A stretch of DNA of 64,000 nt, from contig JAJZQJ010000001.1 in NCBI GenBank assembly GCA_021851895.1, positions 135,338 to 199,337 on the forward strand, written 5' to 3'. Under the pieces are notes generated by a model. That model did not search any database, was not told where the DNA came from, and saw only the letters and a program-made list of their open reading frames with translations. The position numbers and the translations under genes were made by a program. Below, piece after piece: positions 4,176 through 51,820 of this stretch; the stretch's first letter is position 1; each line of letters starts with the position of its first letter. The DNA comes from a bacterium (GTDB taxonomy: Bacteria > Patescibacteriota > Minisyncoccia > Phycocordibacterales > UBA6899).

Positions 4176-4178
4176 ACC

Positions 4179-4208: not shown

Positions 4209-4239
4209 ATAACCACAAAATAGTAATAGCATAAATACT

Positions 4240-4590: not shown

Positions 4591-4613
4591 CTCATGACTT
4601 AAACTCATGACTC
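4584..4613. repeat. Right inverted-repeat arm
   Basis: Exact reverse complement of 4179-4208. Confidence 0.8.
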
Positions 4614-34072: not shown

Positions 34073-34292
34073 CTTGACAGGATAGCAGAATGTAGGGCCG
34101 ATGGGAATAGTACGAGCGCATGAGTTCGGTAGCTGTAATGCCCATATTCATAGCCACAGGCTAAAGTACTCTGTCCACTGTTATCCTCATTACTAAGCAT
34201 TCATATACTTGCGTTATCGAGGTGATACCCTATAATTACTCCATAGCGTAACTTTTATCTACGCGATTAATTGCTAGCACATCAGAAATCAT

Positions 34293-34631
34293 ATGTCTGA
34301 AGCACATAACGATAAGGAGTTTCTCGAATTTATAGTCCAGTCGATCGTCACAAATCCCGCAGGAGTCAAGGTCACTCGCGTCGTGGATGAGATGGGTGTT
34401 CTCCTTACACTCGATGTCGATCCCGCAGATATGAGCCGTGTCATCGGTCGCATGGGTAATACCGCAAAGGCGATCCGTACGCTTCTCCGCGTCGTCGGAA
34501 TGAAGCACAATGCTCGCGTTAATCTCAAGATCAACGAACCAGCAGGTGGCCGACCAATGCAGTCAGCAGGCGCAAGCGCAGCGGATGCGGATGCGGTTGA
34601 TGATGTCATCAACGATTTGAAGGCGGAATAG
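34293..34631 (+). CDS. khpA: KH-domain RNA-binding protein KhpA (YlqC/UPF0109)
   Basis: VIGRMGNTAKAIRTLL KH motif; small, about 110 aa, with an acidic tail. Confidence 0.7.
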   Translation: MSEAHNDKEFLEFIVQSIVTNPAGVKVTRVVDEMGVLLTLDVDPADMSRVIGRMGNTAKAIRTLLRVVGMKHNARVNLKINEPAGGRPMQSAGASAADADAVDDVINDLKAE

Positions 34632-34632
34632 A

Positions 34633-34709
34633 AGTAATCAGCAAGCGGTAATCAGTAATCAGGTTAATACCTGCATTTCCTGTTTACTGTTTACTGATCA
34701 CTGTTTACT
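34633..34709. repeat. Heptamer-array imperfect inverted repeat in the khpA 3' UTR (3x GTAATCA ... 3x TGTTTAC)
   Basis: AGTAATCAGCAAGCGGTAATCAGTAATCAGG - 17 nt spacer - TGTTTACTGTTTACTGATCACTGTTTACT. Lies between the khpA stop (34631) and its terminator (34730-34751). Confidence 0.6.
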
Positions 34710-34729
34710 TTCAAAAACATACAATCATC

Positions 34730-34751
34730 AAACACCCGAGGGGTGTTTTTT
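34730..34751 (+). terminator. Rho-independent terminator for khpA
   Basis: AAACACCCGAGGGGTGTTTTTT. Confidence 0.7.
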
Positions 34752-34811
34752 GTTTTTGTAAATTTCTAAATGCGAATTACTAACATCTGCATTTTGTTAT
34801 ATAATGCAGGC

Positions 34812-35807
34812 ATGAGCCGCGAATCATTCACACACGAAACACAACATTTCGATCCTGAACACAAGGAAGCAAATCAGCAACCTGCATCGATCGAGGTCGC
34901 AGAGGAAGTATATATACAGAAAGAATCCTCTCCCCTAGCACCGAATTATGAATCGACGCGCTGTAAGCTCACGACGGACCTCGATGACTATATCGACTGC
35001 ATGCGCATCGAAGAGATCACAAAAGATAAAGCAGAAACAGAACGTGCGCGAATGAATAACCTCAAAAAAGAGGCAAGTCTCTCCCCTGAGGAACTTGAGG
35101 GTAGTAAGGAGGGCAAGAAAGTCGCTACGATGCTCGAAGAGATCACCGTCAATCTTGGTAATAGTCCCGCATGGATACCAAATGCACGCTTCATCAAAGC
35201 GTCTGAATATGACGACCTCTGTAAGGGAACCGATCTCATCATCGACATAAAGCAACCAAAAACAGGACGGCCGATCATCGTTGCCGTCGATGTCACCACG
35301 GGGCGCAATGAGGTCGGGAAGAAGTTGCGTTCGATCATCAGCCCAGGAGATATGATCTTCGAAAAACCATCATTGAAATATCATCCTGGTCTCAAATATA
35401 TGCATGAGCAGCGCCAAAAGGGCGAGGAAGTGAAACCCGTCGCTGTTGCAAAGCTCGTGCTTGGTGCATCAAGTGAAGTGGTCAAAGAGACATACACGGC
35501 AATGCGTGCGGCTGCGAATGCGAATGATCGACTCGCAGCACGAAATATGAATCGTCTGAAATATGTCATCCTTGAGGGAGGACTCGTGCAAGCTCGTGGT
35601 CTACGAGACCACGCACTCTCCATCAACCAAGGACAAACTGCGAAGATATATGACCATATCGCGCAAGTCTTCCAGAAAGCGCTTGAAGTACACGATCATA
35701 TCTTTGGAGCATTCCCCGCAGAGTACGCAGAAAAAGGCGATGCGGTGCTCGACGAGATAAGGACGATCGAGTCGAGTCGATATACTCCAGTAAAAAGAAC
35801 GGCATAG
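34812..35807 (+). CDS. Hypothetical protein (no recognisable family; possible PD-(D/E)xK-like DLIIDIK motif)
   Basis: ORF 34770..35807; the ATG at 34812 (MSRESF...) is preferred because a TATAAT box lies just upstream. Bidirectional terminator at 35808-35834. Confidence 0.4.
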   Translation: MSRESFTHETQHFDPEHKEANQQPASIEVAEEVYIQKESSPLAPNYESTRCKLTTDLDDYIDCMRIEEITKDKAETERARMNNLKKEASLSPEELEGSKEGKKVATMLEEITVNLGNSPAWIPNARFIKASEYDDLCKGTDLIIDIKQPKTGRPIIVAVDVTTGRNEVGKKLRSIISPGDMIFEKPSLKYHPGLKYMHEQRQKGEEVKPVAVAKLVLGASSEVVKETYTAMRAAANANDRLAARNMNRLKYVILEGGLVQARGLRDHALSINQGQTAKIYDHIAQVFQKALEVHDHIFGAFPAEYAEKGDAVLDEIRTIESSRYTPVKRTA

Positions 35808-35834
35808 AAAAAGAGAGGCTCAGCCTCTCTTTTG
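35808..35834. terminator. Bidirectional terminator
   Basis: AAAAAGAGAGGCTCAGCCTCTCTTTT. Confidence 0.7.
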
Positions 35835-35850
35835 ATTTTCCTTTTGAGTT

Positions 35851-36264
35851 CTAGGAAAGGAACTCCCGCAGACCTTCGAACATCGCGTGCGCAGCGTAGG
35901 TGGCATCACCATCGTACAGCGGGAGGATGTAATCCTCCTTCGCCACCGCACCAAGGAGCCCACGAAGTCCATTTCCTCGAACTGCGATCGCGCCCAAGAC
36001 AGGACCATGAAAACCTGACGGCGTACCATTAGGAAAACAATTATGGAGAAAACATTTCCCCACGAAGTTCTCCGTGACACCGAGAAATTCTATCTCTGCA
36101 TGCTCTGCGAAGTGAAGCCTCAGCTTCTCCGTTTCATCATGCGCGAGCGCGAGCGCTGACAACATGATGATCGCCTTTTCCTTGTAACGAAGTCTTCCTC
36201 TGGAAAACTCCATGATATTCGATGCGGGAGATATCTCTCCACTGGTGGGAATTTTCCCTTCCAT
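35851..36264 (-). CDS. Hypothetical protein
   Basis: 137-aa ORF ending at the bidirectional terminator; no family recognised. Confidence 0.35.
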   Translation of the reverse strand: MEGKIPTSGEISPASNIMEFSRGRLRYKEKAIIMLSALALAHDETEKLRLHFAEHAEIEFLGVTENFVGKCFLHNCFPNGTPSGFHGPVLGAIAVRGNGLRGLLGAVAKEDYILPLYDGDATYAAHAMFEGLREFLS

Positions 36265-36351
36265 CGGACGTCCTTAAAAGTAAAAGTGCATGATTGAAAA
36301 GTGCTGCGTCTCTTTTTAAGCGACTCTCAATATACCATATTATATCAAAAA

Positions 36352-36419
36352 GTCAAGTCATGGGTCATGTGTATTGAATTCAAAGCCACTCACCTGTTAA
36401 TTCAGTCATGAGTCATGAG
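36352..36419. repeat. Relic of a GTCATG(A/G)-heptamer element (two arms in direct orientation, 30-bp spacer, no enclosed gene)
   Basis: AGTCAAGTCATGGGTCATGTG ... 30 nt ... CAGTCATGAGTCATGAG; the same heptamer as the IRs flanking the four-helix-bundle cassette at 4179/4584. Confidence 0.5.
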
Positions 36420-36462
36420 AATTAAATTCGAGGATTCCTACCCAAGATATATGAAACCGCTC

Positions 36463-36548
36463 GGATTTTCGCGTGCGGTTGCCTCGCTGGAGCCCGACGA
36501 CGTACAAGGGTACGGCGAGGGCGAAGCGTGAGGCAACCCCGCGCGAAA
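36463..36548. repeat. Long imperfect hairpin / inverted repeat (about 20-bp arms around a roughly 45-nt GC-rich core); possible structured RNA or element boundary
   Basis: TTTCGCGTGCGGTTGCCTCGC ... GCGTGAGGCAACCCCGCGCGAAA with an internal CGTAC-AAGG-GTACG sub-hairpin. Noncoding, downstream of the rpsP terminator. Confidence 0.45.
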
Positions 36549-36588
36549 AGACAGCGGCCGTGATTCTCACCACGACACCCAGAAAAAG

Positions 36589-36624
36589 GAGGTCAAAAAA
36601 AATAAAACGCCGATAGGCGTTTTA
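36589..36624 (-). terminator. Rho-independent terminator of rpsP
   Basis: Minus strand: AACGCCTATCGGCGTT followed by TTATTTTTTTTG immediately after the rpsP stop. Confidence 0.75.
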
Positions 36625-36921
36625 TTCCTTAACCTCCTTTTTCTGAGGAGTTTTTTTGTTGAGCGCATTGACCTTCTTCCCCTCGACGATCTTGAGATCT
36701 GCGAAGATATTGAATACGGTCTCAGATGGCTGTGCACCCTGGCTAAGCCAGTACTTTGCACGCTCTGCGTTTACCTGCGGCTTGCCCTTGCGAGCGTCGT
36801 AGGAACCGAGGTATTCAACGATACCCTGCGTCTTCTTAGGCGAGCGGCGGCTTTCCTGCACGATGACGCGGAAAGATGGGTCATTCTTACGACCAACACG
36901 CTTTAAACGGATTGCTAACAT
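36622..36921 (-). CDS. rpsP: 30S ribosomal protein S16
   Basis: MLAIRLKRVGRKNDPSFRVIV...GIVEYLGSYD...AKYWLSQGAQPSETV. The longer predicted ORF (to 37089) is an upstream over-extension. Confidence 0.85.
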   Translation of the reverse strand: MLAIRLKRVGRKNDPSFRVIVQESRRSPKKTQGIVEYLGSYDARKGKPQVNAERAKYWLSQGAQPSETVFNIFADLKIVEGKKVNALNKKTPQKKEVKE

Positions 36922-36977
36922 GGGTCTCAGTTTAACAGAAAACATGAAATCGTCAAGCAGTAAAAGGCTCTTCTGGT

Positions 36978-37016
36978 CAAGGGAAATCAAAACGCAACCC
37001 AAATATGAGGGTTGCG
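36978..37016 (-). terminator. Rho-independent terminator ending the island operon
   Basis: Minus strand: CGCAACCCTCATATTTGGGTTGCG followed by TTTTGATTT. Confidence 0.65.
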
Positions 37017-37028
37017 GGTGAAAAAGTC

Positions 37029-37310
37029 CTACGAATCGCAGGTGCAGCGCAGCGGGAGGCCATTGAGATGCGCCCAGGGGTCTCCGCACGAAGAGGCGGG
37101 AATGATCGGCTCCTCAGCCTCAGCAACCTCAGGATTCTGGGTGTCGTCGGCAAGGACGAGCGGATCAACGAGCGGGCCCTTGCTGAGACCACAGCCCTTG
37201 CACTCATCGACGAGATCGGCACGGTCAACACCGTCCCACGCTTCAGGATTGGACGGAAGCTGGAGAGGCCTCCGCACGGAACCGACACGCTCAGTATTGC
37301 TACACATCAT
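37029..37310 (-). CDS. Hypothetical acidic 93-aa protein (island gene A)
   Basis: GGAGGAATG-ATG strong SD. MMCSNTERVGSVRRPLQLPSNPEAWDG...ECKGCGL...CGDPWAHLNGLPLRCTCDS. Chosen over the overlapping shadow ORF 36977..37288. Confidence 0.45.
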   Translation of the reverse strand: MMCSNTERVGSVRRPLQLPSNPEAWDGVDRADLVDECKGCGLSKGPLVDPLVLADDTQNPEVAEAEEPIIPASSCGDPWAHLNGLPLRCTCDS

Positions 37311-37444
37311 TCCTCCAGAAAAGGGAGTTTTAGGAGAGAGAACACGCTTTTTTCATCATATGCCTCTCTCTAAACCTGTCAACATTACACGAAATGAAAA
37401 ACCGCGTCCACAAGGTGGACGCGGGAATTGAAGGCGTTGCACGC

Positions 37445-37594
37445 TACTGCTTGAAGAGGTTACTGATGATCTCCTTGGCGGTCCCTCCGCTGATGTTCTT
37501 GGGAGTCGGGAGCTTGGCGAGCTCAGGAGCGAGCACACCATGCTTCTTTTCATGATCACCCGGCTTCTGGGTGTAGGACACGGAACGGTCCATA
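37445..37594 (-). CDS. Small 49-aa protein (island gene B), absent from the ORF track because under 60 aa
   Basis: Minus-strand ORF MDRSVSYTQKPGDHEKKHGVLAPELAKLPTPKNISGGTAKEIISNLFKQ preceded by AAGGAGG 5 nt upstream of the ATG. Begins about 20 nt after the gene C stop. Confidence 0.4.
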
Positions 37595-37614
37595 GGACCT
37601 CCTTGTGGAAATGC

Positions 37615-38505
37615 TCAGTGCTGAAAGAACAGCAGAGCAGCGTGATTGAAACAGTCGAGAAGACCTTGCCTGGTCTCTAGGTCCTCACCGAAGTAAGCAC
37701 CGTCGAGCTCAGCGAAGTAATCTTCCTTGCGACGCGCTTCGAGCACTTCCTCTTGCTGCAGATCCTCGAGTCCCTTGAAGGAGCTCGAATTCTGGATCAT
37801 ACGCGACGAGGCGACGAACTTGGCCGAGGACGCAACGAGCGACGGGAAGTTCCGCATGAGAAGCTCAGCACGCTTCGTGGGATGCAGCCTCACGCACTCC
37901 TCGGGATAGAACCCATCGAAGTAGCGCAGGTCCTGCTGGATCCAGAACTCGCGATCGTTCTCTTCCTCGCGAGCGAGGATCTGGCCGATGCGCTCACGAT
38001 CGCGACGCGACTTCAGGAAGGGCTTCTTGCGCTTTTCGTTCGCGAGTGAGCGGCGATAGCGCAACATCGCGCCCTCGTTCTCACACACCCTGCCCCACCG
38101 CACGATCTGCTCATGCCGCGACGTACGCGTGCGCTTGTTCACGCGCACACGAGGCTCGGGCACATCATCGAAAGCGACTGCGCCGTCCGCGATGAAGTTG
38201 CCGGAGAAGTCGTAACGCTTGTAGGAGTCATCCCCCCACTGCACGCAACACTCCGACCTCCCGGTCCTGCACCAGAAACACATGCAGGGGTAATCCTCGA
38301 TGTCATCGAAGGGATCGGGGTCTTCCCGGCGATCGAAGTCGGGAAACTCATCCAGCTCGCCGAGATCAGGCATCGGGAGAATGCACTCGCACTCTTCCGG
38401 CCGACCGATCTTGTGCCAGTAGCAGTGGCACTCTTCTTCCTTGATGTTCTCCGCGGCGATGTGCTGCAGAGCGGAACCAGTGATGAGCTTCGGAAAACCA
38501 GACAT
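37615..38505 (-). CDS. Cys-rich 296-aa protein with two C-x-C...C-x-C clusters and a basic region (island gene C); function unknown
   Basis: CHCYWHKIGRPEECEC and CMCFWCRTGRSECC clusters; Arg/Lys-rich segment KRTRTSRHEQ...KRKKPFLKSRRDRER. AGGAG SD; driven by consensus promoter 38561-38588. Confidence 0.5.
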   Translation of the reverse strand: MSGFPKLITGSALQHIAAENIKEEECHCYWHKIGRPEECECILPMPDLGELDEFPDFDRREDPDPFDDIEDYPCMCFWCRTGRSECCVQWGDDSYKRYDFSGNFIADGAVAFDDVPEPRVRVNKRTRTSRHEQIVRWGRVCENEGAMLRYRRSLANEKRKKPFLKSRRDRERIGQILAREEENDREFWIQQDLRYFDGFYPEECVRLHPTKRAELLMRNFPSLVASSAKFVASSRMIQNSSSFKGLEDLQQEEVLEARRKEDYFAELDGAYFGEDLETRQGLLDCFNHAALLFFQH

Positions 38506-38560
38506 GGATGCTCCTAGAAAGGAGGTTATTGGGGATGGAAAGGATCAAAAGTTCGTTGTA

Positions 38561-38588
38561 ATTATACCATAAAATATGTATATGTCAA
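38561..38588 (-). promoter_or_regulatory. Near-consensus sigma-70 promoter (TTGACA-N16-TATAAT) for island genes C-B-A
   Basis: Minus-strand TTGACATATACATATTTTATGGTATAAT read directly. Confidence 0.6.
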
Positions 38589-38620
38589 TGAAATACCGCA
38601 CTACTCGGGGAGTAGTGCGG
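38586..38620 (-). terminator. Rho-independent terminator after island gene D
   Basis: Minus strand: CCGCACTACTCCCCGAGTAGTGCGG (11-bp perfect stem) followed by TATTTCATT. Confidence 0.6.
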
Positions 38621-38640
38621 TAGAGGTTGACGAGGAACTG

Positions 38641-38952
38641 CTAGGCCACCTGGGCCAGCAGGAGTGTGCGCTTGGGGGCACGACGATCATGCCGACGCCC
38701 GTGGCGGCGATGGTTGCACTCCTTGCAGGAGCTCGGCCGCGTGTAGCGGCTGAACTTCTCGGAGATGCGCACCTCGCCGTCCCCGAAGCGCTCGTCGCAC
38801 TTGCGCTTGCGCACCTTCGGCACCACCGCGTCGATGTGGTGTTCCGGGTGGTCGAAGTGCTCGAGGTGCTCGCAGCACTCTTTGCCGTCATCCATCATGA
38901 TGAGCGTGAGGCCAGCGAGCAGGGGGTGGACGTGCGCGGAAGAGATCGACAT
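38641..38952 (-). CDS. Cys/His-rich small protein with HNH-like motif (island gene D); start at the ATG giving MSISSAHVH
   Basis: CCEHLEHFDHPEHHIDAV ... SCKECNHRRH resembles an HNH/treble-clef zinc finger. GGAGA SD. Own consensus promoter at 39004-39031. Confidence 0.4.
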   Translation of the reverse strand: MSISSAHVHPLLAGLTLIMMDDGKECCEHLEHFDHPEHHIDAVVPKVRKRKCDERFGDGEVRISEKFSRYTRPSSCKECNHRRHGRRHDRRAPKRTLLLAQVA

Positions 38953-39003
38953 GATGTCTCCAAGAGGAGGGTTATAGTGGAAAGCCAAAGATCTGACAAA
39001 ATT

Positions 39004-39031
39004 ATTATATCACAGATATCATATTTGTCAA
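39004..39031 (-). promoter_or_regulatory. Near-consensus sigma-70 promoter (TTGACA-N16-TATAAT) for island gene D
   Basis: Minus-strand TTGACAAATATGATATCTGTGATATAAT. Confidence 0.6.
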
Positions 39032-39102
39032 TAACTCAAATGTTCTTGAATTTTAAGCATTTCATGCTGTATGGTCTTCCCTATTCCTGCTATACTAGTC
39101 TT

Positions 39103-39381
39103 ATGCAGGATTATGCACCAACAGGCTTACCGACGCTTTCAATACCAGACTTCGGTCTACCGAACCTCGGGATGGGGATTTCGAGCGAAATGCTCTCCAT
39201 CTTCTTTTTCATCGTTATCGTCTTTACCCTCATCTATACGATTCTTCTTTTCAATCAATGGAGGAAGTACTCCCCTAGCCCGCTACGTGCCTTCAAATAC
39301 GCCGCGATCTATCTGATCGGCACCATCGGAATCATCCTCGCACTACTTTCACTTCTTCCTCTCTATGCGGGGAGCCTCTGA
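39103..39381 (+). CDS. Small (92 aa) two-TM membrane protein
   Basis: ATG at 39103 preceded by a TATACT -10-like box. Two hydrophobic helices. The upstream part of predicted ORF 38689..39381 is antisense shadow of the GC-rich island. Confidence 0.4.
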   Translation: MQDYAPTGLPTLSIPDFGLPNLGMGISSEMLSIFFFIVIVFTLIYTILLFNQWRKYSPSPLRAFKYAAIYLIGTIGIILALLSLLPLYAGSL

Positions 39382-39408
39382 TGAAATTATCCTCTTCTCA
39401 CAATCATC

Positions 39409-39948
39409 ATGTCCATCGTTGAACTCACACCGGACGAAACCATTCTCCGTATCGTCCATAGGCACATTTATTCATTTGTCGACGACATGTTCGGCATATT
39501 GCTCTTTTTCGCTCTACCGCTCATCTTTGCGGTGCTTATGATCTATTTCGTGCCGACATCGATTCAGCAATCGATATTCCAAGGCAATCCGAATATCGGC
39601 ATCATCTTCATCGCACTCACTGGAGCACTCGTCGCTTGGATGTACGCTTGGTGGCGGTGGACGGACTATTTCCTCAATGTCATCGTCATTAGCAACGAGC
39701 GTATATACGAGATCAAGCAACGCGGATTCTTCCGTCGTGAAGTTGGCTCATTTGGACTCGACCGAATCCAAAACATAACGACGACACAAAAAGGCGTCAT
39801 CGCAACCATGTTCAATTTCGGTGATCTCTATATTGAGACTGCGGGAGAGAACGAAAACCTCAATATGCTCACCATTCCAAATCCAAGCGAACTCAAACAA
39901 TTCATCAATGAACTTCAAGACCACTTCAAAGCGACACGGAAACTCTAA
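39409..39948 (+). CDS. Membrane protein with bacterial PH domain (YdbS/YdbT-like, DUF304/bPH_2)
   Basis: Two N-terminal TM helices followed by VISNERIYEIKQRGFFRREVGSFGLDRIQNITTTQKGVIATMFNFGDLYIET, typical of DUF304. Confidence 0.55.
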   Translation: MSIVELTPDETILRIVHRHIYSFVDDMFGILLFFALPLIFAVLMIYFVPTSIQQSIFQGNPNIGIIFIALTGALVAWMYAWWRWTDYFLNVIVISNERIYEIKQRGFFRREVGSFGLDRIQNITTTQKGVIATMFNFGDLYIETAGENENLNMLTIPNPSELKQFINELQDHFKATRKL

Positions 39949-42088
39949 GCCAACGCATGCACCTCGAAAAGGTGCTCTGCATGATCAAGAAGATGCGAAA
40001 AGAAATCGCCCTTCCAAAGAGCGCAGAGCGCAGGCAAAACTGAGCCCAAGCAAAAAATTTCCCCCGAACCATCGCGTCGAGGGCACTCTTCGTATAACCG
40101 GAAAAGGTCTCGGTCTCGTTGCCGTCGATGGAATGGAAGATATGATCGAGATCGATCAGAATGATCTACATACTGCACTCGACGGAGATCGCGTCGAGGT
40201 ACTGCTCTATGGTAAGGCCGCGGGAAGGCGACCGACAGGAACGATAACGAATATCCTCCTACGACTGAAGCTAAGTTTCGCAGGTACGATCGACATCCTC
40301 GGAAGGGCACATTTTCTCATTCCTGATGACACAAGGATGTATAAACCCATCTTCATTCCAGAAGAGTCTCTTGCAGGAGCAAAAAAGGGAGACAAGGTAT
40401 TCGGAGAGATCACGAGGTGGACCGACGCAATAAAAGACCCTCTCGGTAAAGTATTACGCATACTCGGCAAACCAGGAGAGAACGATGCGGAAATGTATGC
40501 GATCATCCTCGAAAAGGGATTCTCCCCCGACCATCCGAAGGAAGTCATTGAGGCCGCGGAAGCATTCGATGGGGTCATCTCCAGCGAAGAGATCGCAAAG
40601 CGCAGAGATTTTAGAGGTGTACTCACGATGACCATCGATCCATGGGATGCAAAGGACTTCGATGATGCACTTTCCATAAGGATGCTTCCCGATGGAAATG
40701 TGGAAGTGGGCATACACATCGCAGATGTCTCGCACTATGTCACCCCAGGGAGCACGATCGACCAGGAGGCGATCGCAAGAGCAACGAGTATATATCTCGT
40801 TGACAGAACCATCCCTATGCTCCCCGAGCGCCTCAGCAATGATCTTTGCTCGCTCGTCCCAAATAAGGATCGACTCACGATGAGCGCAGTATTTGTTCTC
40901 GATAAGCATGCGTCCATCGTCTCTGAATGGTTTGGAAAGACGATCGTCCACAGCAAACGACGATTCTCCTACGAGGAGGCGCAGGAGGTCATTGATTCCG
41001 GAAATGGTGACCATGCTGCAGAACTTGCCGTACTGAATCAACTCGCAATCATCCTTCGAGAGGAGCGCACCAGAGATGGATCCATCGCTTTCGAAGCAGA
41101 GGAAGTCAAATTCAAACTCGATGATGCAGGGAGACCATTGTCGGTTTACGTAAAGGAGATGCGTGATGCGAATAAGCTCATTGAGGAGTTCATGCTCCTT
41201 GCAAACAAGCGTGTTGCGACATATCTCGCACAAAAGGATCCGCGCACGGAAAAGGCCTTCATTTACCGTGTGCACGATGTCCCGAATGAAGAGCGCATGC
41301 AAGATCTCTCTGAGTTCTTGCAATCACTTGGTATCCCTTTCAACCGCTCGCGCAAGACGGGAAACTGGGACTCTCGCGATATCAACAAGATGCTCCTTTC
41401 GATAAAAGGACGCGCGGAATCCGCGATGATACAAATGGCGACCGTTCGTGCTATGGCAAAAGCGATCTACACTACGAAGAATATCGGCCATTATGGTCTC
41501 GGTTTCGAATACTATACCCATTTCACCTCACCCATAAGACGTTACCCCGACCTCATGGTGCATCGTCTCCTCCATGCGGAACTTAATGGACGCACCATCA
41601 AAGATGCTGACCTAAAACGCCAAGAGGAACTTGCGCGCTATTGTTCCCAAATGGAGAAGGATGCAACAGATGCCGAACGATCATCGATACGACTGAAGCA
41701 GTGTGAATATTTCGCCGTGCGCATCGGAACAGCGATCGAGGGTACGATAAGTGGTGTAACCGAATGGGGCCTCTACGTCGAAGATAACCTCACGAAAGCG
41801 GAAGGAATGATACACATCCGAGACCTCCCTAATGATTTCTTCTTCTTTGAAGAGAAGAAATACAGACTCGTCGGTAAGAATAGTGGTGTGGCCTTCAGGC
41901 TTGGCGATCACGTACGCGCAGAGATCACCGCAGTCGACATGAAACGTAAACAATTGTCCATGAAACTACTTGGGCAACCTACGGCCTCGCGCGTAGAGCA
42001 GCGAGTGACACAGAGAGACCGCACAAAGACTGCACGAAACAAAAACCCGACACACAAGGAATTCCCGCAAAGAAAAAAGAGGCGCTAG
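39908..42088 (+). CDS. rnr: Ribonuclease R (RNB-family 3'-5' exoribonuclease); start uncertain (ORF opens at 39821 and overlaps the previous gene)
   Basis: N-terminal cold-shock-like regions; RNB catalytic domain (WDAKDFDDALSI, IADVSHYV, LVDRTIPMLPERLSNDLCSLVP, GHYGLGFEYYTHFTSPIRRYPDLMVHR); C-terminal S1 domain and basic tail. Confidence 0.8.
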   Translation: MNFKTTSKRHGNSKPTHAPRKGALHDQEDAKRNRPSKERRAQAKLSPSKKFPPNHRVEGTLRITGKGLGLVAVDGMEDMIEIDQNDLHTALDGDRVEVLLYGKAAGRRPTGTITNILLRLKLSFAGTIDILGRAHFLIPDDTRMYKPIFIPEESLAGAKKGDKVFGEITRWTDAIKDPLGKVLRILGKPGENDAEMYAIILEKGFSPDHPKEVIEAAEAFDGVISSEEIAKRRDFRGVLTMTIDPWDAKDFDDALSIRMLPDGNVEVGIHIADVSHYVTPGSTIDQEAIARATSIYLVDRTIPMLPERLSNDLCSLVPNKDRLTMSAVFVLDKHASIVSEWFGKTIVHSKRRFSYEEAQEVIDSGNGDHAAELAVLNQLAIILREERTRDGSIAFEAEEVKFKLDDAGRPLSVYVKEMRDANKLIEEFMLLANKRVATYLAQKDPRTEKAFIYRVHDVPNEERMQDLSEFLQSLGIPFNRSRKTGNWDSRDINKMLLSIKGRAESAMIQMATVRAMAKAIYTTKNIGHYGLGFEYYTHFTSPIRRYPDLMVHRLLHAELNGRTIKDADLKRQEELARYCSQMEKDATDAERSSIRLKQCEYFAVRIGTAIEGTISGVTEWGLYVEDNLTKAEGMIHIRDLPNDFFFFEEKKYRLVGKNSGVAFRLGDHVRAEITAVDMKRKQLSMKLLGQPTASRVEQRVTQRDRTKTARNKNPTHKEFPQRKKRR

Positions 42089-42098
42089 CCTCTTTTTT
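42074..42098. terminator. Bidirectional terminator
   Basis: AAAAAGAGGCGCTAGCCTCTTTTTT. Confidence 0.7.
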
Positions 42099-42477
42099 AT
42101 TTCATCTCATGACCCGTGCAATTTGGAGTACATGCAACACAATGATCGCATACCATTGCCATCTTTTCATCCTTCTCATGACCGGTGCAACCACCTGCCA
42201 TACATTTATCGCAGTGATCACACTCGCTCTCACCACGTGCAAACATGCACTTACCGCAAGGACAACCAAAGAGCTTATAAAGGGCAGCGATACCAACGAT
42301 GAGATACACGGTCGCAGGAAGCATTGGCCATGCCCCCAAGAACAGCATCACCGGATCAAGCTCAAGACCCATGAAAATGCCGAGACCACGAAGACCGTGC
42401 ACTAGGGCGCCGATAATGATGAGCCACCAGGCGATCTTGCCGCCGAGGCAACCCTCCCCCTTCTTTTTGTCGTACAT
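42097..42477 (-). CDS. DUF378-family membrane protein fused to a Cys/His-rich (putative metal-binding) C-terminal tail
   Basis: N-terminal IAWWLIIIGALVHGLRGLGIF... matches the DUF378 pattern; C-terminal 50 aa contains 13 Cys and 5 His (CPCGKC...CDHCDKC...GCTGHEK...CDHCVACTPNCTGHE). Confidence 0.55.
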   Translation of the reverse strand: MYDKKKGEGCLGGKIAWWLIIIGALVHGLRGLGIFMGLELDPVMLFLGAWPMLPATVYLIVGIAALYKLFGCPCGKCMFARGESECDHCDKCMAGGCTGHEKDEKMAMVCDHCVACTPNCTGHEMK

Positions 42478-42610
42478 AATTGCTTATAGTTACTATTATA
42501 TATATAGTATAACACGCGATAGTGCACTTTTGTGTGTACTATGCACAACACGGATTTATCCACAGGTAACCCTTTACCGATCTTCATTATGGGTATATAT
42601 TCATAATATG

Positions 42611-42883
42611 GTACGACCAAAATGTGAAAAAATCGTCAAGTTCAAGGGCTCTATCCATTCCCTTCTCCCCTCTTGTCCGATACGACAGAAAGAGCCATTC
42701 ATTGAACTTCTCCCAGAAGAACTCGAGGCATTGCGCCTTGCCGATAGCCAAGGACTCACTCAGGTCGTATCAGCAAAACATATGGGCATCTCTCAAAGCA
42801 CGTTTCAACGGTTGCTCGAGAATGCTCGTAAAAAGACCGCGACCGCTCTTGTCGAGGGCCGAGGTATTAATCTTTTAACTTAA
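42611..42883 (+). CDS. DUF134/UPF0251-family putative DNA-binding protein
   Basis: MVRPKCEKIVKF...ELLPEELEALRLADSQGLTQVVSAKHMGISQSTFQRLLENARKKTATALVEG matches the DUF134 consensus (N-terminal Cys pair plus sigma-70 region-4-like HTH). An ATG at 42611 with a TATAAT-like box upstream is preferred over the long ORF 42299..42883. Confidence 0.6.
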   Translation, partial: VRPKCEKIVKFKGSIHSLLPSCPIRQKEPFIELLPEELEALRLADSQGLTQVVSAKHMGISQSTFQRLLENARKKTATALVEGRGINLLT

Positions 42884-42887
42884 AATC

Positions 42888-43508
42888 ATGTCATTTCTTA
42901 CACAACTCGAACGTCGTTATGCGACGAAGAAGTTTGACCCAAAGAATCCCATCTCAAAAGAACAGTTCGATGAGGTGCTTCGTGCGATCCGCATGGCACC
43001 GACCTCACTCGGCTTACAGCCATTCCATGTAACTGTAGTAACAAACATGGATACAAGGCAGAAGCTCGCGGAAAACGGATGGAATCAGCCACAGTTCACT
43101 ACTGCAGATTACGTACTCGTTTTTTCTGCGCGCACTGATGTACTTGAGCGCGGCAAGAAGTTCACAACGGACATGCTCGCACACGGCGCACCATCGGAAA
43201 AGATGACTGCATTTACAAACATGGTGACCGGTCTCGACGGAGGTTTTACTTCCGCTGAGCAGCGCATTGCATGGGCAAAATACCAAGCATATATCGCCCT
43301 CGGCTTTGGACTCGCAGCAGCTGCAGAGCTCGGCATAGACTCTTGCCCCATGGAAGGATTCGATCGTGACGCTTTCAAGAAAATACTCGGTCTTCCTGAA
43401 CACTTCTACCCTGCAGCGGTTCTCGCGCTTGGAAACCACGCAGCGGACGATGTTGCATATCCAAAATATCGCTTCGAAGAATCAGATCTCTTCGACGCCA
43501 TCGCATAA
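42888..43508 (+). CDS. Nitroreductase-family NAD(P)H-flavin oxidoreductase
   Basis: RYATKKFDP...LRAIRMAPTSLGLQPFHVTVV and C-terminal LALGN... are typical of the nitroreductase fold. Confidence 0.7.
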   Translation: MSFLTQLERRYATKKFDPKNPISKEQFDEVLRAIRMAPTSLGLQPFHVTVVTNMDTRQKLAENGWNQPQFTTADYVLVFSARTDVLERGKKFTTDMLAHGAPSEKMTAFTNMVTGLDGGFTSAEQRIAWAKYQAYIALGFGLAAAAELGIDSCPMEGFDRDAFKKILGLPEHFYPAAVLALGNHAADDVAYPKYRFEESDLFDAIA

Positions 43509-43531
43509 AAACGCCACTTCCTGGCGTTTTT
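43507..43531. terminator. Bidirectional terminator
   Basis: AAAACGCCACTTCCTGGCGTTTT. Confidence 0.7.
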
Positions 43532-44084
43532 ATAATGTATGCGTGTGTGTATGTAATGCTGCACGGAGTCGCGCATAATCGGGGATCTGCTGTGCGACGA
43601 GACTCCAGAAACGGGCGGAGTGATTGAACTCTCCAAGGTGGCAGAGCTCGTGAACGATCACATAATCTGCGATCTCGGGAGGCAATAAAATAATACGATA
43701 ATTGAAATTCAGATTTCCTTTTCGTGAACATGATCCCCAGCGCGTATGTTGATCGCGAACACTGACACGATGGAAAACATATCCATAGTGTCGATTAAAA
43801 TACTCGACGCGTTCTTTCACAAAAGATAATGCTTTTTCCTTATTGGCGATAAATCGATCTCTTCCTTCTTTTTTTGAAAGTTTTCTCGGTACATGCTCCA
43901 TGCGCTCGATCTCATGGGCAACCCAAACACGCTTCTCTCGCAAAAATCGCTCGATCAGATAAACCGGGAGTAATTTCGGTGCACTCACGCGAACAATTCC
44001 ACCCGGATACACAGAAATTCGAATATGCCGTGCATTTTTGCGACGGAAGAGACGATAAGGAAACGGTATCGAGGGATTGACCAT
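43530..44084 (-). CDS. YgjP-like metal-dependent hydrolase (DUF45/M48-like; HExxH)
   Basis: RWGSCSRKGNLNFNYRIILLPPEIADYVIVHELCHLGEFNHSARFW. Confidence 0.7.
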   Translation of the reverse strand: MVNPSIPFPYRLFRRKNARHIRISVYPGGIVRVSAPKLLPVYLIERFLREKRVWVAHEIERMEHVPRKLSKKEGRDRFIANKEKALSFVKERVEYFNRHYGYVFHRVSVRDQHTRWGSCSRKGNLNFNYRIILLPPEIADYVIVHELCHLGEFNHSARFWSLVAQQIPDYARLRAALHTHTHTL

Positions 44085-44123
44085 ATCAAAATCATAGCAT
44101 GAGAAAACTCGCCGAAGCGAGTT

Positions 44124-44648
44124 TTATTGAATTACGGTAGTTGCGGTTCCGGAAGCAGCTACAGGAACGACATCTTGCACACCAACAGTAGACGATGATA
44201 CAACAGGAGCCGGAGCAGTAGACGTAGTCGTCACCGTCTGTTCTACTGGCCCGGGAGAAACTGGAAGGGTCTCGCTCGAAGTTGCCAAAACAGGCTTCAC
44301 TGATGCCGATGGCGCAGAGAGTGAGGGCATGAGAAAACGCACGTAAAGGAATATCGCTGCAGCGGCCACGACAATAATACCGAAAATTAAAGCAATGATC
44401 GTACCTATGGGTGCGTGCTTTGTTATTTCTGGTTGTGTAACGGGTCCAGCCTGCCCCTTTCCATCCGGCTTTATGACGACCTCTGGTTCCTTCTTCGGAG
44501 ATGGGACCATCTTCTCGGTCAACTTCATTCCCTTTTCTACATCAACCTCTTCCCATCCTGCATGAAGCAAAGCATTCCTTATATTTGCGGTGCTCGCACC
44601 ATGAACGCGCTGATGCATAATATAATCGATCAATTCTTGTTGTGCCAT
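44124..44648 (-). CDS. Membrane protein with conserved N-terminal ELIDYI..QR..GAS domain, TM helix and Ser/Thr/Val-rich extracellular tail (paralog 1)
   Basis: MAQQELIDYIMHQRVHGASTANIRNALLHAGWEEVDVEKG is about 60% identical to the N-terminus of 44751..45710. Palindrome CGTCGAA-GT-TTCGACG in the 5' leader. Confidence 0.45.
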   Translation of the reverse strand: MAQQELIDYIMHQRVHGASTANIRNALLHAGWEEVDVEKGMKLTEKMVPSPKKEPEVVIKPDGKGQAGPVTQPEITKHAPIGTIIALIFGIIVVAAAAIFLYVRFLMPSLSAPSASVKPVLATSSETLPVSPGPVEQTVTTTSTAPAPVVSSSTVGVQDVVPVAASGTATTVIQ

Positions 44649-44750
44649 ATATTGAGATGCTTCTTATCGTCGAAACTTCGACGTACATGTATATAAGTAT
44701 ATCAGGAGAGCGCATGGACGGCAAAAAAAGACCAGCAAAGGTCTTTTTTC

Positions 44751-45710
44751 TTATTGTGTCACCGCTGACGTCGTCCCCATATCAGATGTCGAAGAAGCAG
44801 CTTCGGTAGTGGACGTTGCTTCTGACGAAGATGCTGCTGTATCTTGCTGCGGCATCGACGATGGGAAGACGATAGGTACCATCGTATTATCAGACGTTGT
44901 CGCCGTGTCTGGACTTACTCCGGTCGATACATTATCAGGCACAACGATCACATCGTTCACGACGGGAACATCGGCTGCGGGAACAGGAGCTGGAACTGCG
45001 GCACTTTTTACATATTTCCAATACGCATATGCACCCCCTCCTACAACCAAAAGTAAACCAAGTATGATAAATATGATCTTCAGTGATGAGCCATGCTCTT
45101 TCTTTTCGATTGGCATAGCTGCTGGCGCAGCAGTGGACATTGTCTGCATAGGCTCCGGTTGCGCACTTTGCATCGTCGAGATAGGCGAAGCTGGCATTGG
45201 GGCCACCACAGAAGATGCCTTCATGTCGTTGATATTCGGCATAACCATCGATACTGGTGGATGCACAATTCCAAGAGGTGTGGTTCCCTGATTCACAACA
45301 GGAGTTTTCCCTAATGCTGCTGCAGCAGAAAAGACAGGGGCCTGCAAAGATGCTGCGGGAGTATTTTCACTTTGAGCTACTGCGGGCATGTCCATCTTCG
45401 TAACAAAAGCCTCATTCGTCGTCATTGTGGCTTGAGGAGCGACAGCCTCCATCTGCTTCACTTCAGGTGACGCCTGAGGAGCAACTTGTGCTACAGGCGT
45501 AGCGGGAATCTCTTGCGACTGTACATTTGAAAATACCGGTGCGGTGGGCACATACTCAGCGACCTCTGGAGCTGGGGCAGTCGCCGCAATACCCTGTTCA
45601 ACGTCCTGTGCATCCCAACCTGCCTTCAATAAGGCTTCCTTTATATTCTCTCCACTTGCACCAAATGCACGCTGACGATTTATATAATCTATGAGTTCTT
45701 GATTTGCCAT
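44751..45710 (-). CDS. Paralog 2 of the ELIDYI-domain membrane protein family (longer low-complexity region)
   Basis: MANQELIDYINRQRAFGASGENIKEALLKAGWDAQDVEQG; TM helix LKIIFIILGLLLVVGGGAYAYW. Upstream pair of CGATCG palindromes. Confidence 0.45.
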   Translation of the reverse strand: MANQELIDYINRQRAFGASGENIKEALLKAGWDAQDVEQGIAATAPAPEVAEYVPTAPVFSNVQSQEIPATPVAQVAPQASPEVKQMEAVAPQATMTTNEAFVTKMDMPAVAQSENTPAASLQAPVFSAAAALGKTPVVNQGTTPLGIVHPPVSMVMPNINDMKASSVVAPMPASPISTMQSAQPEPMQTMSTAAPAAMPIEKKEHGSSLKIIFIILGLLLVVGGGAYAYWKYVKSAAVPAPVPAADVPVVNDVIVVPDNVSTGVSPDTATTSDNTMVPIVFPSSMPQQDTAASSSEATSTTEAASSTSDMGTTSAVTQ

Positions 45711-45822
45711 AATGAGTGTCCGTCGATCGCGTGATAATGACGATCGATTTCAATATAATTAGTATAGCAGAGAAAACAGTCAGGCATAGTGAGTTATGAA
45801 CAAAAACCGGCAATGCCGGTTT

Positions 45823-48093
45823 TTATTTCGCAGTAAGCGCAGCTTCATCAAACGAAATCGAGAGGGTCTTCGATACTGCATCAGATCCCATCGTCACTCC
45901 GTAGAGAGTTGTCGCACGCGACATCGTCTCGCGATTATGTGTGATGACCATCAACTGCGAATGTCGTGCGAGCTGCTCGATCATATCGCCGTATTTCCTA
46001 CTATTCGCCTCGTCGAGTGCCGCATCGGTCTCGTCGAGCACCATAAATGGAGGTGGATTTACCTGCGAGATGGCAAAAAGCAACGCAATTGATGTGAGCG
46101 CGCGCTCTCCGCCAGAGAGCATCTGCAAGCCCTTGATCTTCTTGTGTGGAAGAGATACGGAGACATCAACGCCCTCTTCGTCCTCACCCTCCTCCTCATC
46201 AGTAACTGCACCACCAGGAATATCAGAAAGATCGATGTCTGTATCCTTTCTCCTGCGTTTCTCGATCTTCACGACCATAAGCTCAGCAACACCGCCACCA
46301 AACATCAATCGGAAGAAGTCACTGAATTGCTTGTTGATACGCGATACTCCATCACGGAACTCGGTATTGAGCTTTTCATTAAGCTCATCGATGAGCGCAC
46401 GCAAAGACTCTTGCGTCTTGATGAGATCCTCTGTTTCGCGCGCAAGGAACGCATCGCGTTCGAGTGTCTCGTTGAATTCTTTCTCGACGTCGTCACCACC
46501 GGCGCCACCGAGATCTTCGAGGCGAAGCTTTCCTCGCTCGATATCCCTTCGACGCGACTCCTGACGAGTACGATCCTCACCCATGACCTCTTCGATCGAG
46601 ACGACGACCGAGGAGTGGTCGAGCACAGCTCTTCCAAGCAACACTCCCGCCTCGCTGAGTTCTTCGTCGAGGCGCTGCGTCTCTCTCGTGATGCGCTCCT
46701 CGTCGCCATGTATTCTCTCTACAGTATGCTGCAACTCTCCGCGCTCTTGCATCATCGAAAAGAGTGCACGCTCTGTATCGCGAGATCGCTCTTTCTCAGC
46801 ATCGATCGAAGACTTCACCTTTGCGTAGCTCTCCTCGAATATCGTGTACTCTGCATCGATGCGATGAAGCTCTTCTTCGTGCACAATGCGTTCTGCGCGC
46901 AAACCCTCAAGCTCACGTCGATCCTCATCGGTGATCGCCTGTTGGCCTGCCGACTGTTTCTTCATGCCAATGAACTCACGAACGAGATCGCGAGCGCGAT
47001 AAGCGATCCATCGCCATCGATCGAGCTCGTTGTTCCCTTCCATGCCATCGAAAAGCGCATCGAGCTCACGAGATACGTGCTCGACTTCACCGAGATGCAT
47101 AGCAATATCTTCCTGACGTGCGAGCTGCTCTTCACGCTTCTTCAATCTGCGCTCTTCGAACTCGATCATACCATCAACCTTACCGAGTGCACGAGCCGCA
47201 CCATCTCTACGAGTACGTGCATCACGCAATTTCGCTTCTACTGCCAAGAGTTCGTGACTCATTGAATCACCTGCGCTCTCCGCTGCGAGCTGCTCGCGCG
47301 CATGCTCTATCTTTATATTGAGATCTGCAAGTTTTGCTGCAGGCTCGCTCAATTTGCCCGCGAGTAATGCGCGAGACTCCGTAAGATAGATCTCTTCACG
47401 TTTCAAGTATTCCCTATAGAGACCGACGAGTCTGTCACGGAGTGTCTTTGCCTCCTCCATCTTCTCCATCTGCTTCTTGAGAAAACGCAAATGTGGCGCG
47501 ATCTCTCTACGCAAACTCTCCACCTCGCGCATATTCTCTTCCGTCTTTGTTAGTCTCCGCTCGCTCTCTTCGCGCTTATATTGATATGCCTTGAGTCCAA
47601 GCGCATCCTCGAGCATTGAACGACGCTCCTTTGGATTTGCAGAGAGGATGCGATCCGCTTCGCCCTGAGAGATCATATGATGACCCGACGCACCGATGTG
47701 CACCGAGGCGAGCAACTCAAAGATGTCACGCAATCTTGCGGTTGAGCCGTTGATGAAATATTGATTGCTTCCATCACGAAATACCTCACGAGTCATGGAA
47801 ACCTCATCGAAATCAAGTGGGAATTCACGCTTCGTGTTATCGAAGACAATCGTAACACTCGCACGATTCGCGCGAGCCGCGGATTGCGATCCGTTGAAGA
47901 TCATGTCTTCTCCTCGCTTACCGCGCATAGACTTCATCGATTGTTCACCAAGCACAAAACGTATCGCTTCCGCGACATTCGACTTACCGGATCCATTGGG
48001 ACCAACAACAGCGGTGATCTGTGAGATAAAATCGAGAGTTACCTTTCGGCCAAATGACTTGAAGCCAAATATCTCCAATCGTTTCAGACGCAT
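45823..48093 (-). CDS. smc: SMC-family chromosome segregation ATPase (short, 756 aa)
   Basis: N-terminal Walker A (FKSFGRKVTLDF...VVGPNGSGKSNVAEAIRFVLGEQS), long coiled coils, C-terminal signature LSGGERALTSIALLFAI and Walker B PFMVLDETDAALDEAN. Divergent from rnc. Confidence 0.7.
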   Translation of the reverse strand: MRLKRLEIFGFKSFGRKVTLDFISQITAVVGPNGSGKSNVAEAIRFVLGEQSMKSMRGKRGEDMIFNGSQSAARANRASVTIVFDNTKREFPLDFDEVSMTREVFRDGSNQYFINGSTARLRDIFELLASVHIGASGHHMISQGEADRILSANPKERRSMLEDALGLKAYQYKREESERRLTKTEENMREVESLRREIAPHLRFLKKQMEKMEEAKTLRDRLVGLYREYLKREEIYLTESRALLAGKLSEPAAKLADLNIKIEHAREQLAAESAGDSMSHELLAVEAKLRDARTRRDGAARALGKVDGMIEFEERRLKKREEQLARQEDIAMHLGEVEHVSRELDALFDGMEGNNELDRWRWIAYRARDLVREFIGMKKQSAGQQAITDEDRRELEGLRAERIVHEEELHRIDAEYTIFEESYAKVKSSIDAEKERSRDTERALFSMMQERGELQHTVERIHGDEERITRETQRLDEELSEAGVLLGRAVLDHSSVVVSIEEVMGEDRTRQESRRRDIERGKLRLEDLGGAGGDDVEKEFNETLERDAFLARETEDLIKTQESLRALIDELNEKLNTEFRDGVSRINKQFSDFFRLMFGGGVAELMVVKIEKRRRKDTDIDLSDIPGGAVTDEEEGEDEEGVDVSVSLPHKKIKGLQMLSGGERALTSIALLFAISQVNPPPFMVLDETDAALDEANSRKYGDMIEQLARHSQLMVITHNRETMSRATTLYGVTMGSDAVSKTLSISFDEAALTAK

Positions 48094-48111
48094 ATGGTGG
48101 AATTATATCAT

Positions 48112-48209
48112 AAGTGAGAAGTAAGAAGCGAGAAGTAAGAAGGATCATTCATGGAAATATACATCTATCTTTCACTCCTTCTTCTTACTTCTTACTGTTT
48201 ACTTCTCAC
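48112..48209. repeat. Heptamer-array inverted repeat in the smc/rnc divergent intergenic region (GAAGTAA arrays), spacer encoding a possible 24-aa hydrophobic peptide
   Basis: AGTGAGAAGTAAGAAGCGAGAAGTAAGAAGGA - 31 nt - TCCTTCTTCTTACTTCTTACTGTTTACTTCTCACT. ATG at about 48151 (MEIYIYLSLLLLTSYCLLLTISIV) with AAGGA upstream. Confidence 0.55.
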
Positions 48210-48232
48210 TATTTCTATAGTATAGTGCGCAA

Positions 48233-51655: not shown

Positions 51656-51820
51656 ATGGTAACCCACATGCGACATACGCGCGGTCACACGAACAATCGT
51701 CGTTCACACCACGCGCTCAAGGAGGCACGTTTTGTGACGTGCGAGTGTGGTGCGCAGCAACTCATGCACCGTGCGTGCGGAAAGTGTGGCACCTACCGCG
51801 GCAAGAAGGTCACGGCCTAA
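51656..51820 (+). CDS. rpmF: 50S ribosomal protein L32 (54 aa; under the 60-aa ORF-track cutoff)
   Basis: MVTHMRHTRGHTNNRRSHHALKEARFVTCECGAQQLMHRACGKCGTYRGKKVTA: basic N-terminus plus CxC...CxxC zinc ribbon ending ...YRGKKV. Frame 2; stop TAA at 51818-51820. Confidence 0.75.
   Translation: MVTHMRHTRGHTNNRRSHHALKEARFVTCECGAQQLMHRACGKCGTYRGKKVTA

Follow-up and report, generated by a model that had tools for sequence, protein, structure and literature searches.

Hairpin-forming heptamer arrays at four sites of a Candidate Phyla Radiation contig, one of them enclosing a 23S_rRNA_IVP-type four-helix-bundle gene

The stretch of DNA considered here, the window, comprises 64,000 nucleotides (nt) from a bacterium of the Candidate Phyla Radiation (CPR; GTDB lineage Patescibacteriota, Minisyncoccia, Phycocordibacterales, UBA6899) and corresponds to positions 135,338 to 199,337 of contig JAJZQJ010000001.1 in GenBank assembly GCA_021851895.1. 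Four intergenic sites, designated A to D, carry tandem arrays of a seven-base unit, and all four are found where an original prediction, made from the letters alone, had placed them (Table 1). Site A has a LexA-like gene on one side and a Y-family polymerase gene on the other, and it encloses a gene for a four-helix-bundle protein of a type known originally from within 23S rRNA genes. Site B is located between divergent promoters, site C in the 3′ untranslated region (UTR) of khpA and site D between smc and rnc. The four sites are one kind of element, an array of 7-base repeats that forms a hairpin. No four-helix-bundle open reading frame (ORF) was found at sites B, C and D.

The two arms of site A, each 32 nt long, are 100% complementary and stand 373 nt apart with the cargo ORF between them, giving a cassette of 437 nt in total. 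The left arm begins 2 nt past the stop codon of the LexA-like gene (3594-4175), and the right arm holds both the stop codon of the cargo gene (4588-4590) and the ATG of the polymerase gene (4607). In the predicted fold of a 456-nt transcript, the 32-bp stem is present in both the minimum free energy and the centroid structures (z = -6.2). The host operon has the order Peptidase_S24 LexA-like gene, four-helix-bundle gene, IMS Y-family polymerase gene, and this order is kept in four relatives (loci L002-L005) together with inverted AGTCATR arrays of 2 to 6 copies. The cargo proteins of these relatives are 78% (L002), 68% (L003 and L004) and 63% (L005) identical to that of the window. Since dN/dS between the cargo gene and its orthologues is 0.06-0.09 while synonymous sites are saturated (proportion of synonymous differences, pS, 0.69-0.88), the cargo protein is judged to be functional. 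The arm arrangement GAGTTT(T)AAGTCATGAGTCAT is common to site A and these relatives, and in L005 the unit AGTCATA occurs in both arms, an instance of concerted evolution of the arm pair. Judged from these alignments, the non-coding arms of site A are constrained in sequence far beyond the neutral expectation, and the site is a long resident of the operon, in place since before synonymous saturation.

The cargo protein matches the 23S_rRNA_IVP family PF05635 with E = 1.2e-39 and 135.2 bits (cutoff 33.8) and TIGR02436 with 125.8 bits (cutoff 24). Compared with known structures, the family profile finds the pentameric XCC0516 (2GSC, five chains) with E = 2e-40 and also 2RLD (five chains); by homology alone, the window protein would be a homopentamer. 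Identity with Avd, the accessory protein of diversity-generating retroelements, was considered and rejected, the scores being 34.6 bits against NF033474 (cutoff 80) and 37 bits against PF22296 (cutoff 40). This identity is also contradicted by the neighbours, which are the LexA-like and Y-family polymerase genes, with no reverse transcriptase. A literature search for links between HEPN or Avd and the proteins of rRNA intervening sequences (IVSs) gave nothing useful. An SOS box, CGAACAATTGTTCG (CGAAC-N4-GTTCG), is located at 3567-3580, upstream of the LexA-like gene; it is a perfect box of the Cheo type and abuts a TATACT -10 element, and a second convincing box was not seen in the window. The lexA-like/Y-family polymerase pair would be an operon of the SOS type in a CPR bacterium.

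Read on the inward strand, AGT opens every unit at all four sites (AGTCATG; AGTAATC/AGTAAAC; AGTAAGA/AGTGAGA). Since all units are AGT-first, the sites have sequence phase as well as geometry in common. The claim that they share one geometry stands insofar as they form a single family, and the inward AGT takes the likeness beyond geometry; the spacers, given as 17-31 nt in the original prediction, are 13-18 nt at C, 38 nt at D and 373 nt at A. Sites C and D form interrupted stems of about 33-35 bp. The right array of site C reads TGTTTAC on the plus strand (reverse complement AGTAAAC/AGTGATC); complementarity between the two arrays of this site is imperfect, each unit having one U.U mismatch. 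The arms of site D are 79% complementary, and the fold has z = -6.1 on the plus strand and -4.2 on the minus strand. The two doublets of site B are in direct orientation and enclose no gene, as had been predicted.

Table 1. Positions of the heptamer arrays and of the cargo gene in the window
Feature	Coordinates	Strand	Description
Site A left arm	4178-4209	+	CG AGTCATG AGTTTA AGTCATG AGTCATG AGA; perfect inverted repeat of 4583-4614
Site A right arm	4583-4614	+	Reverse complement of left arm
Four-helix-bundle gene, cassette cargo, 116 aa	4240-4590	+	PF05635/TIGR02436
Site C gene-less hairpin	34625-34712	+	khpA 3′ UTR; -41.2 kcal/mol, z = -6.0
Site C left array	34633-34662	+	AGTAATC AGCAAGC GGTAATC AGTAATC (units 34633-34660)
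Site C right array	34676-34709	read on -	AGTAAAC AGTGATC AGTAAAC AGTAAAC (units 34682-34709)
Site B left doublet	36352-36372	+	AGTCA AGTCATG GGTCATG (doublet 36356-36368)
Site B right doublet	36403-36420	+	AGTCATG AGTCATG (36404-36416), in small palindrome TTAATTC...GAATTAA
Site D left arm	48104-48142	+	AGTGAGA AGTAAGA AGCGAGA AGTAAGA AGG
Site D right arm	48181-48219	read on -	AGTGAGA AGTAAAC AGTAAGA AGTAAGA

The arrays are not a product of chance, as the original prediction had held. A purpose-made period-7 detector counts seven period-7 runs in the window, compared with 0.26 expected from 200 dinucleotide shuffles of the window (maximum 2), an excess of about 25-fold, and two strict reverse-complement array pairs, compared with none in all 200 shuffles. 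A comparison panel of 1.38 Mb of unrelated loci contains 41 such runs and one pair; scaled to 64 kb, this amounts to about 1.9 runs and 0.05 pairs. Tandem Repeats Finder reports period-7 arrays at the sites and almost nowhere else in the window. The lone heptamer AGTCATG is not enriched in the window (13 observed, 10.9 expected), so that the signal resides in the arrays. A strict count of AGT three times in phase, which is underpowered when the window alone is used, gives two observed against 0.43 expected (maximum 2). Rfam has no match for the window (which has no rRNA either), for the sites or for the inserts in relatives.

Inverted arrays also accompany the gene family elsewhere. A metagenome scan with the family alignment yielded 80 loci whose proteins are 44-55% identical to that of the window, and these, with the window and three orthologous loci, were examined for bracketing, which was called when an inverted repeat scored above the maximum of shuffled flanks. 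Both flanks are present in 68 loci, and in 44 of these the gene is bracketed, with period 7 in 40 and period 8 in four. Among 493 ordinary small ORFs put through the same procedure, only two are called, the window's own gene and one Trp-repressor-like gene with an operator palindrome; excluding the window gene, the control rate is 1/492, an association of 65% versus 0.2%. The bracketed elements have a median length of 454 nt and a typical arm of 29 nt, about 4-5 units. The units vary by locus (AGGGACT, AGTGGCT, AGGATTG, AGGTAAC and others), and AG is present in 37 of 40, compared with 23 expected and a maximum of 32 in 1000 permutations. This AG-dinucleotide permutation replaced single-column rotation phasing, for which the permuted null gave similar column maxima. 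Since AG occurs in 37 units but CT in only 9 of the 40, the arrays are polar, reading (AGNNNNN)n inward from either end, and they are poor in C (12%). In 41 loci the cassette is co-oriented with the genes on both sides, and in four it is anti-oriented. The median distance is 4 nt from the upstream stop codon to the left arm and 14 nt from the right arm to the next start codon. None of 40 cassettes is located in rRNA.

The idea that the arrays act as frame-independent translation stops was set aside as non-discriminating: stops in all three frames are found in 38% and 25% of arms, depending on the direction of reading, compared with 7% and 1% of shuffled arms, but this largely follows from a period that is not a multiple of 3. 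Gene-less arrays, mostly AG-phased on one strand, occur in other CPR and Bacteroidota loci (L012:17736-17805, L074:4850-4975, L021:12234-12318, L056:7463-7493 and 9645-9675), with no four-helix-bundle gene inside the fetched range. Examples among them are TAGGCGC in 3.7 copies followed by GCCTAAG, and AATGGTT in six copies followed by the reverse complement of four copies of AGTTGTT. No four-helix-bundle gene was found beside the heptamer arrays of 80 RNase R loci.

The classic insertion places of IVSs are in 23S (or 16S) rRNA, at helix 25 or 45. The IVS in the 23S rRNA of Coxiella is 428-444 nt long, and its termini form a 28-bp stem whose loop contains the S23p ORF; its 5′ end carries two or three GACAGAT heptamers, variable between strains, and RNase III cuts at the first repeat (PMC4990558). 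Site A resembles the Coxiella and Leptospira IVSs in its size of 437 nt, a PF05635 ORF enclosed by a terminal stem of about 30 bp, and heptamers of variable copy number. Unlike an IVS in rRNA, it occupies a gap between protein-coding genes in an operon of the SOS type; purifying selection on its ORF is strong, whereas the ORF of Coxiella is decaying, both of its arms are full heptamer arrays, and sites B to D have no ORF and lie outside rRNA. Measured against the strict definition of a 23S IVS, none of the sites is an rRNA insertion, a terminal stem is present at A, C and D and marginal at B, and an S23p ORF is present at A only. IVP genes are known in rRNA insertions of CPR bacteria (PMC11270868) and between operon genes such as cmr3 and cmr2 (PMC3936711).

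On balance, and with considerable room for doubt, the sites are best read as AG(T)-phased heptamer-array palindromes of the kind that typically forms the ends of 23S_rRNA_IVP/S23p cassettes, site A being a complete cassette of the IVS type and sites B to D gene-less and young. Site A would be transcribed together with its host operon, and its arms would pair as a 32-bp duplex. By analogy with Coxiella, this duplex may juxtapose the upstream stop codon and the downstream start codon, serve as an ideal substrate for RNase III, or both, and either cleavage or juxtaposition would let the 437-nt insertion sit in an operon or an rRNA without damage. Since the arms of site A are constrained and AG recurs every 7 nt across the family, an additional factor that reads the sequence would also contact the arrays, the pentameric four-helix-bundle protein being the candidate. 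Sites C, D and B would be arrays of this kind that lack a gene and have expanded by slippage within non-coding spacer DNA. The original suggestion of structured RNA elements holds in part: an RNA stem with RNase III processing is plausible at A and C and doubtful at B and D.

Several observations weigh against the cassette reading. A single peptide pattern was used to recruit the 80 loci, which represent a sub-clade of the family. Mismatches between the arms, counted on the sense strand, have no G.U bias (24 G.U, 28 A.C, 68 other), so that they give no support to long-term selection on sense-strand RNA pairing, and DNA-level homogenisation between the arms fits the mismatch pattern equally well. 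The doublets of site B run in the same direction, and their fold is marginal (z = -2.5 and -1.0). When relatives of the B and C region are collected by means of the ORF at 34770-35807 (L170 at 89% identity, L171 at 78%, L172 at 71%), site B and the arrays of site C are absent from the 89% relative L170, and the arrays of C are absent from L171 as well. Relatives for site D were collected by means of RNase III (L166 and L168 at about 80%, L169 at 70%); of the two closer ones, L166 has arrays at the D position that give no significant hairpin (z = -0.86), and L168 has a lone array without a partner. Site D itself, flanked on either side by the -10 box of a divergent and apparently leaderless promoter, is probably outside both mRNAs.

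A different emphasis would make pairing secondary and take the arrays as binding sites of an oligomeric protein, likely the pentameric four-helix-bundle protein, which would read AG(T) once every 7 nt and leave the four bases in between free. This proposal overlaps with the cassette reading and does not exclude it; as an account in its own right it must be considered unlikely, though it deserves attention. AG is retained at period 7 while the other positions are variable, and the arm sequence of site A has been kept through saturated synonymous divergence, a constraint that pairing alone does not need. AGTCATG recurs at A, at B and after rnc in L168, and at the D position AGT arrays are kept even where they have no potential to form a hairpin. 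A typical arm comprises about 4-5 units, and those homologues whose structures are solved are pentameric. HutP reads (UAG-N4)3 and TRAP reads (G/U)AG repeats. The arrays resemble these ligands, as a functional analogy only, in a short core at a fixed period, free spacer bases and a homo-oligomer with about as many subunits as there are repeats; the proteins are not homologous, and the window arrays, unlike those ligands, are also mutually complementary. A protein ligand leaves the complementarity of the variable positions between the arms unexplained. Proteins that are about 50% identical, moreover, go with greatly differing units at their loci, and the units of C and D are not AGTCATG even though a single four-helix-bundle gene is seen in the window.

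For sites B, C and D, growth by slippage with little or no function is a serious rival. The three sites would then be functionless simple repeats, produced by polymerase slippage that favours 7-nt units, with hairpin-templated correction of quasi-palindromes holding the arms similar; they would build up in any available non-coding spacer, and their likeness to site A would be only mutational; this possibility, though the less probable one, has much to recommend it. Among the long simple repeats of bacteria, heptamers are the most over-represented, and slippage is a proposed cause of their excess (cited in PMC4679880, PMC4692102). B and C are missing from the 89% relative, the units of D are different in every relative, copy numbers are variable and arm mismatches have no G.U bias. 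Slippage does not predict the polar AGT phase of three unrelated unit families, for which the probability of a chance occurrence is estimated here at roughly 0.11 cubed, nor does it predict the 65% versus 0.2% association with one gene family or the sequence conservation of site A. The different long hairpin that L170 and L171 retain at the C position hints, in addition, that a hairpin matters there.

It also speaks for slippage that B, C and D are all located in spacers made by clade-specific gene inversions. In the window clade, khpA and rnc are inverted relative to other Parcubacteria (L006-L020), whose rpsP-khpA-trmD and rnc-smc orders are co-directional; the inversion regions of the window are 34073-36621 and 48094-48232. 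Two ORFs between khpA and rpsP (34812-35807 and 35851-36264) are lineage-specific and without Pfam domains. The arrays were rejected as cause or scar of the inversions: the inversions are also present in L169 and L170-L172, which lack the arrays; they are thus the older event and did no more than make the spacers. From these comparisons, sites B, C and D are evolutionarily young. The elements had been expected to be conserved in close relatives, which is true of site A, true of site D only in the sense that some AGT array occupies the place, and not true of B and C.

Site C is certainly transcribed, since it lies inside the khpA 3′ UTR. Its stem takes in the khpA stop codon TAG (34629-34631), and a conserved intrinsic terminator (34730-34748) is located downstream. 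L170 and L171 retain the khpA stop codon and the conserved terminator with an unrelated long hairpin between them. This hairpin is homologous in the two relatives (L170:925-1035, L171:3452-3560), with an outer stem AATTTGG...CCAAATT, a variable interior and z of about -7. Either a hairpin is required at this position or the spot is attractive to palindromic insertions. Because it occupies a 3′ UTR in which relatives keep another hairpin, site C is the most likely of the three gene-less sites to act in RNA.

Pairing between the doublets of site B is possible only through the palindromic TCATGA core. The left doublet adjoins the -35 element (TTGACT, minus strand) of a promoter-like site for the ORF at 35851-36264; the corresponding position in relatives reads AGTCAAGTAAyGACC, with the doublet missing. 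The right doublet lies within an insertion of about 20-48 nt that is missing from L170, L171 and L172. The promoter frame is conserved in all of these relatives and the AGTCATG doublets in none. Site B, between divergent promoters, may have no RNA role.

Beside site B, at 36457-36557 on the plus strand, there is a conserved rod-like hairpin of about 100 nt, with counterparts at L170:2798-2905, L171:5345-5470 and L172:1838-1960. The consensus fold has -58.3 kcal/mol on the plus strand, with compensatory changes in 20 of 38 pairs, and -42.9 kcal/mol on the minus strand, with compensatory changes in 13 of 36 pairs. A conserved GATATAT...GAAACC precedes the hairpin, and Rfam gives no match even at E <= 1. 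It may be a novel small RNA on the strand opposite to rpsP.

The left arm of site D is located directly upstream of the extended -10 element of smc (TGATATAAT, minus strand), and the right arm stops just before the conserved -10 element of rnc (TATAGT, 48221-48226), the rnc gene itself occupying 48233-48931. Both genes seem to be leaderless or nearly so, their -10 elements ending about 7-9 nt before the start codons; neither the region with the extended TGnTATAAT of smc (48091-48112) nor that with the TATAGT of rnc (48221-48235) has a Shine-Dalgarno sequence, and the arrangement is kept in L166, L168 and L169. AGT-phased arrays with other units are present at the D position, beside the smc promoter, in L166 and L168, and none is present in L169. 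L168, a relative at about 81%, also has four copies of AGTCATG, the unit of sites A and B, right after the rnc stop codon (L168:3451-3478), where the contig ends 86 nt later. Autoregulation of rnc by RNase III at the D hairpin was rejected since D is upstream of the transcription start: the conserved TATAGTGCGC...ATG of the window and L169 puts the -10 element about 7 nt before the ATG.

The original prediction also allowed for a 24-residue hydrophobic micropeptide (MEIYIYLSLLLLTSYCLLLTISIV) encoded at site D, and there is hardly any prospect that this is correct. An ATG at 48153 does follow AAGGA by 6 nt, but the left arm of D terminates in this AAGGA, the reading frame is the CTT/ACT-rich right arm, whose repeats account for the Leu-rich composition, and both transcription starts probably lie downstream of the region. 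The peptide sequence is absent from L166, L168 and L169.

Positions beside promoters raise the question of whether the arrays are operators of a helix-turn-helix regulator, of LexA-like, DUF134 or ECF type as first proposed, or contingency repeats that tune the promoters at B and D. The arms of both sites abut the -35 regions of divergent promoter-like sites, and a change in copy number would move the upstream DNA in 7-bp steps. Against such a role, relatives in which the genes and promoters are preserved have no arrays at B-D or have other ones, the regulators and promoters being conserved in L169 and L170-L172, which lack the arrays; A and C, moreover, are not at promoters. A LexA operator is contradicted further by the LexA-like gene, which has its own canonical box CGAACAATTGTTCG, unrelated to the heptamers. 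The regulatory explanation is accordingly improbable.

The description of the sites as MITE-like (miniature inverted-repeat transposable elements) fares no better. Terminal inverted repeats, small size and intergenic position would fit such mobile elements, and both MITEs and the REP/BIME class (repetitive extragenic palindromes and the mosaic elements built from them) are small intergenic palindromes often found after stop codons. However, those elements occur in large numbers of near-identical copies and have cognate transposases (or RAYT proteins), and their arms are not internal tandem repeats; MITEs differ also in having target-site duplications. At the four sites there are no near-identical copies, no transposase and no target-site duplications flanking any of them. 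The units differ by site with only AGT in common, the arms are internally repetitive, unlike MITE termini, and site A has been syntenic since before synonymous saturation. A mobile origin of this kind is very improbable.

Two further features of the window stand apart from the arrays. A giant ORF of 6297 residues with DUF2341 repeats, typical of CPR surface proteins, occupies 5790-24683 on the minus strand. A 109-nt unit is repeated 2.6 times at 100% identity at 51798-52075, upstream of a dnaE-like ORF (52272-55601); each copy bears a terminator-like hairpin AAGACAAACACCCCTAACGGGTGTTTGTTTT, and the repeat may reflect either recent duplication or an artefact of the assembly.

An excess of intergenic heptamers is documented in other bacteria and unexplained, as with GGGAATC of Xanthomonas, which forms 70-75 convergent pairs; further heptamer repeats are GGGGAYT of Nostoc and Anabaena, the heptanucleotide repeats of cyanobacteria and TAACTGA of Beggiatoaceae and Bacteroidetes (PMC4692102, PMC4679880). 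The window arrays resemble these in being tandem 7-mers of 2-6 or more units, intergenic near the 3′ end of the upstream ORF and often arranged as convergent stem-loop pairs, with copy number and presence that vary between close relatives. They belong among intergenic heptamer simple-sequence repeats, being intergenic, of at least two copies, in convergent pairs and variable in relatives. The reverse complements of TAACTGA and GGGGACT read AGT-first. Unlike the published cases, in which one unit dominates a genome, the window has three unit families, and the functions proposed for those repeats (G-quadruplexes, translational regulation) do not fit AGTCATG. The gene of the crystallised pentamer XCC0516 has a 4-unit GGGAATC array at its 5′ edge, over the annotated start and 6 nt from bccP (PMC4692102 supplement); the two papers draw no link between repeats and four-helix-bundle proteins (PMC4692102, PMC4679880), and the array at XCC0516 passes without comment by the authors. 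No published work was found that joins S23p cassettes, the heptamer excess and the RNase III cuts of Coxiella. The occurrence of IVS architecture outside rRNA, with a general AG-phased array signature and its link to the heptamer excess, has not previously been synthesised.

A broader proposal, speculative and for now rather unlikely, is that AG-phased arrays are the cognate ligand of pentameric IVP/S23p/Avd-like proteins, and that protein and arrays together form a very widespread cassette of rRNA genes and of operons, where it resides in the gap from one stop codon to the next start codon. Arm pairing in the transcript and processing by RNase III would keep such a cassette harmless. If this is true, much of the heptamer excess of Xanthomonas, cyanobacteria, Bacteroidetes and CPR bacteria would be explained by derivatives of the cassette that have no gene. 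The cassettes physically link two separate puzzles, the role of S23p/four-helix-bundle genes and the bacterial excess of 7-nt repeats, and this link makes the function of both the protein and the repeats directly testable. Annotators also gain a simple signature for a common unannotated class of elements in CPR bacteria, Bacteroidota and other phyla.

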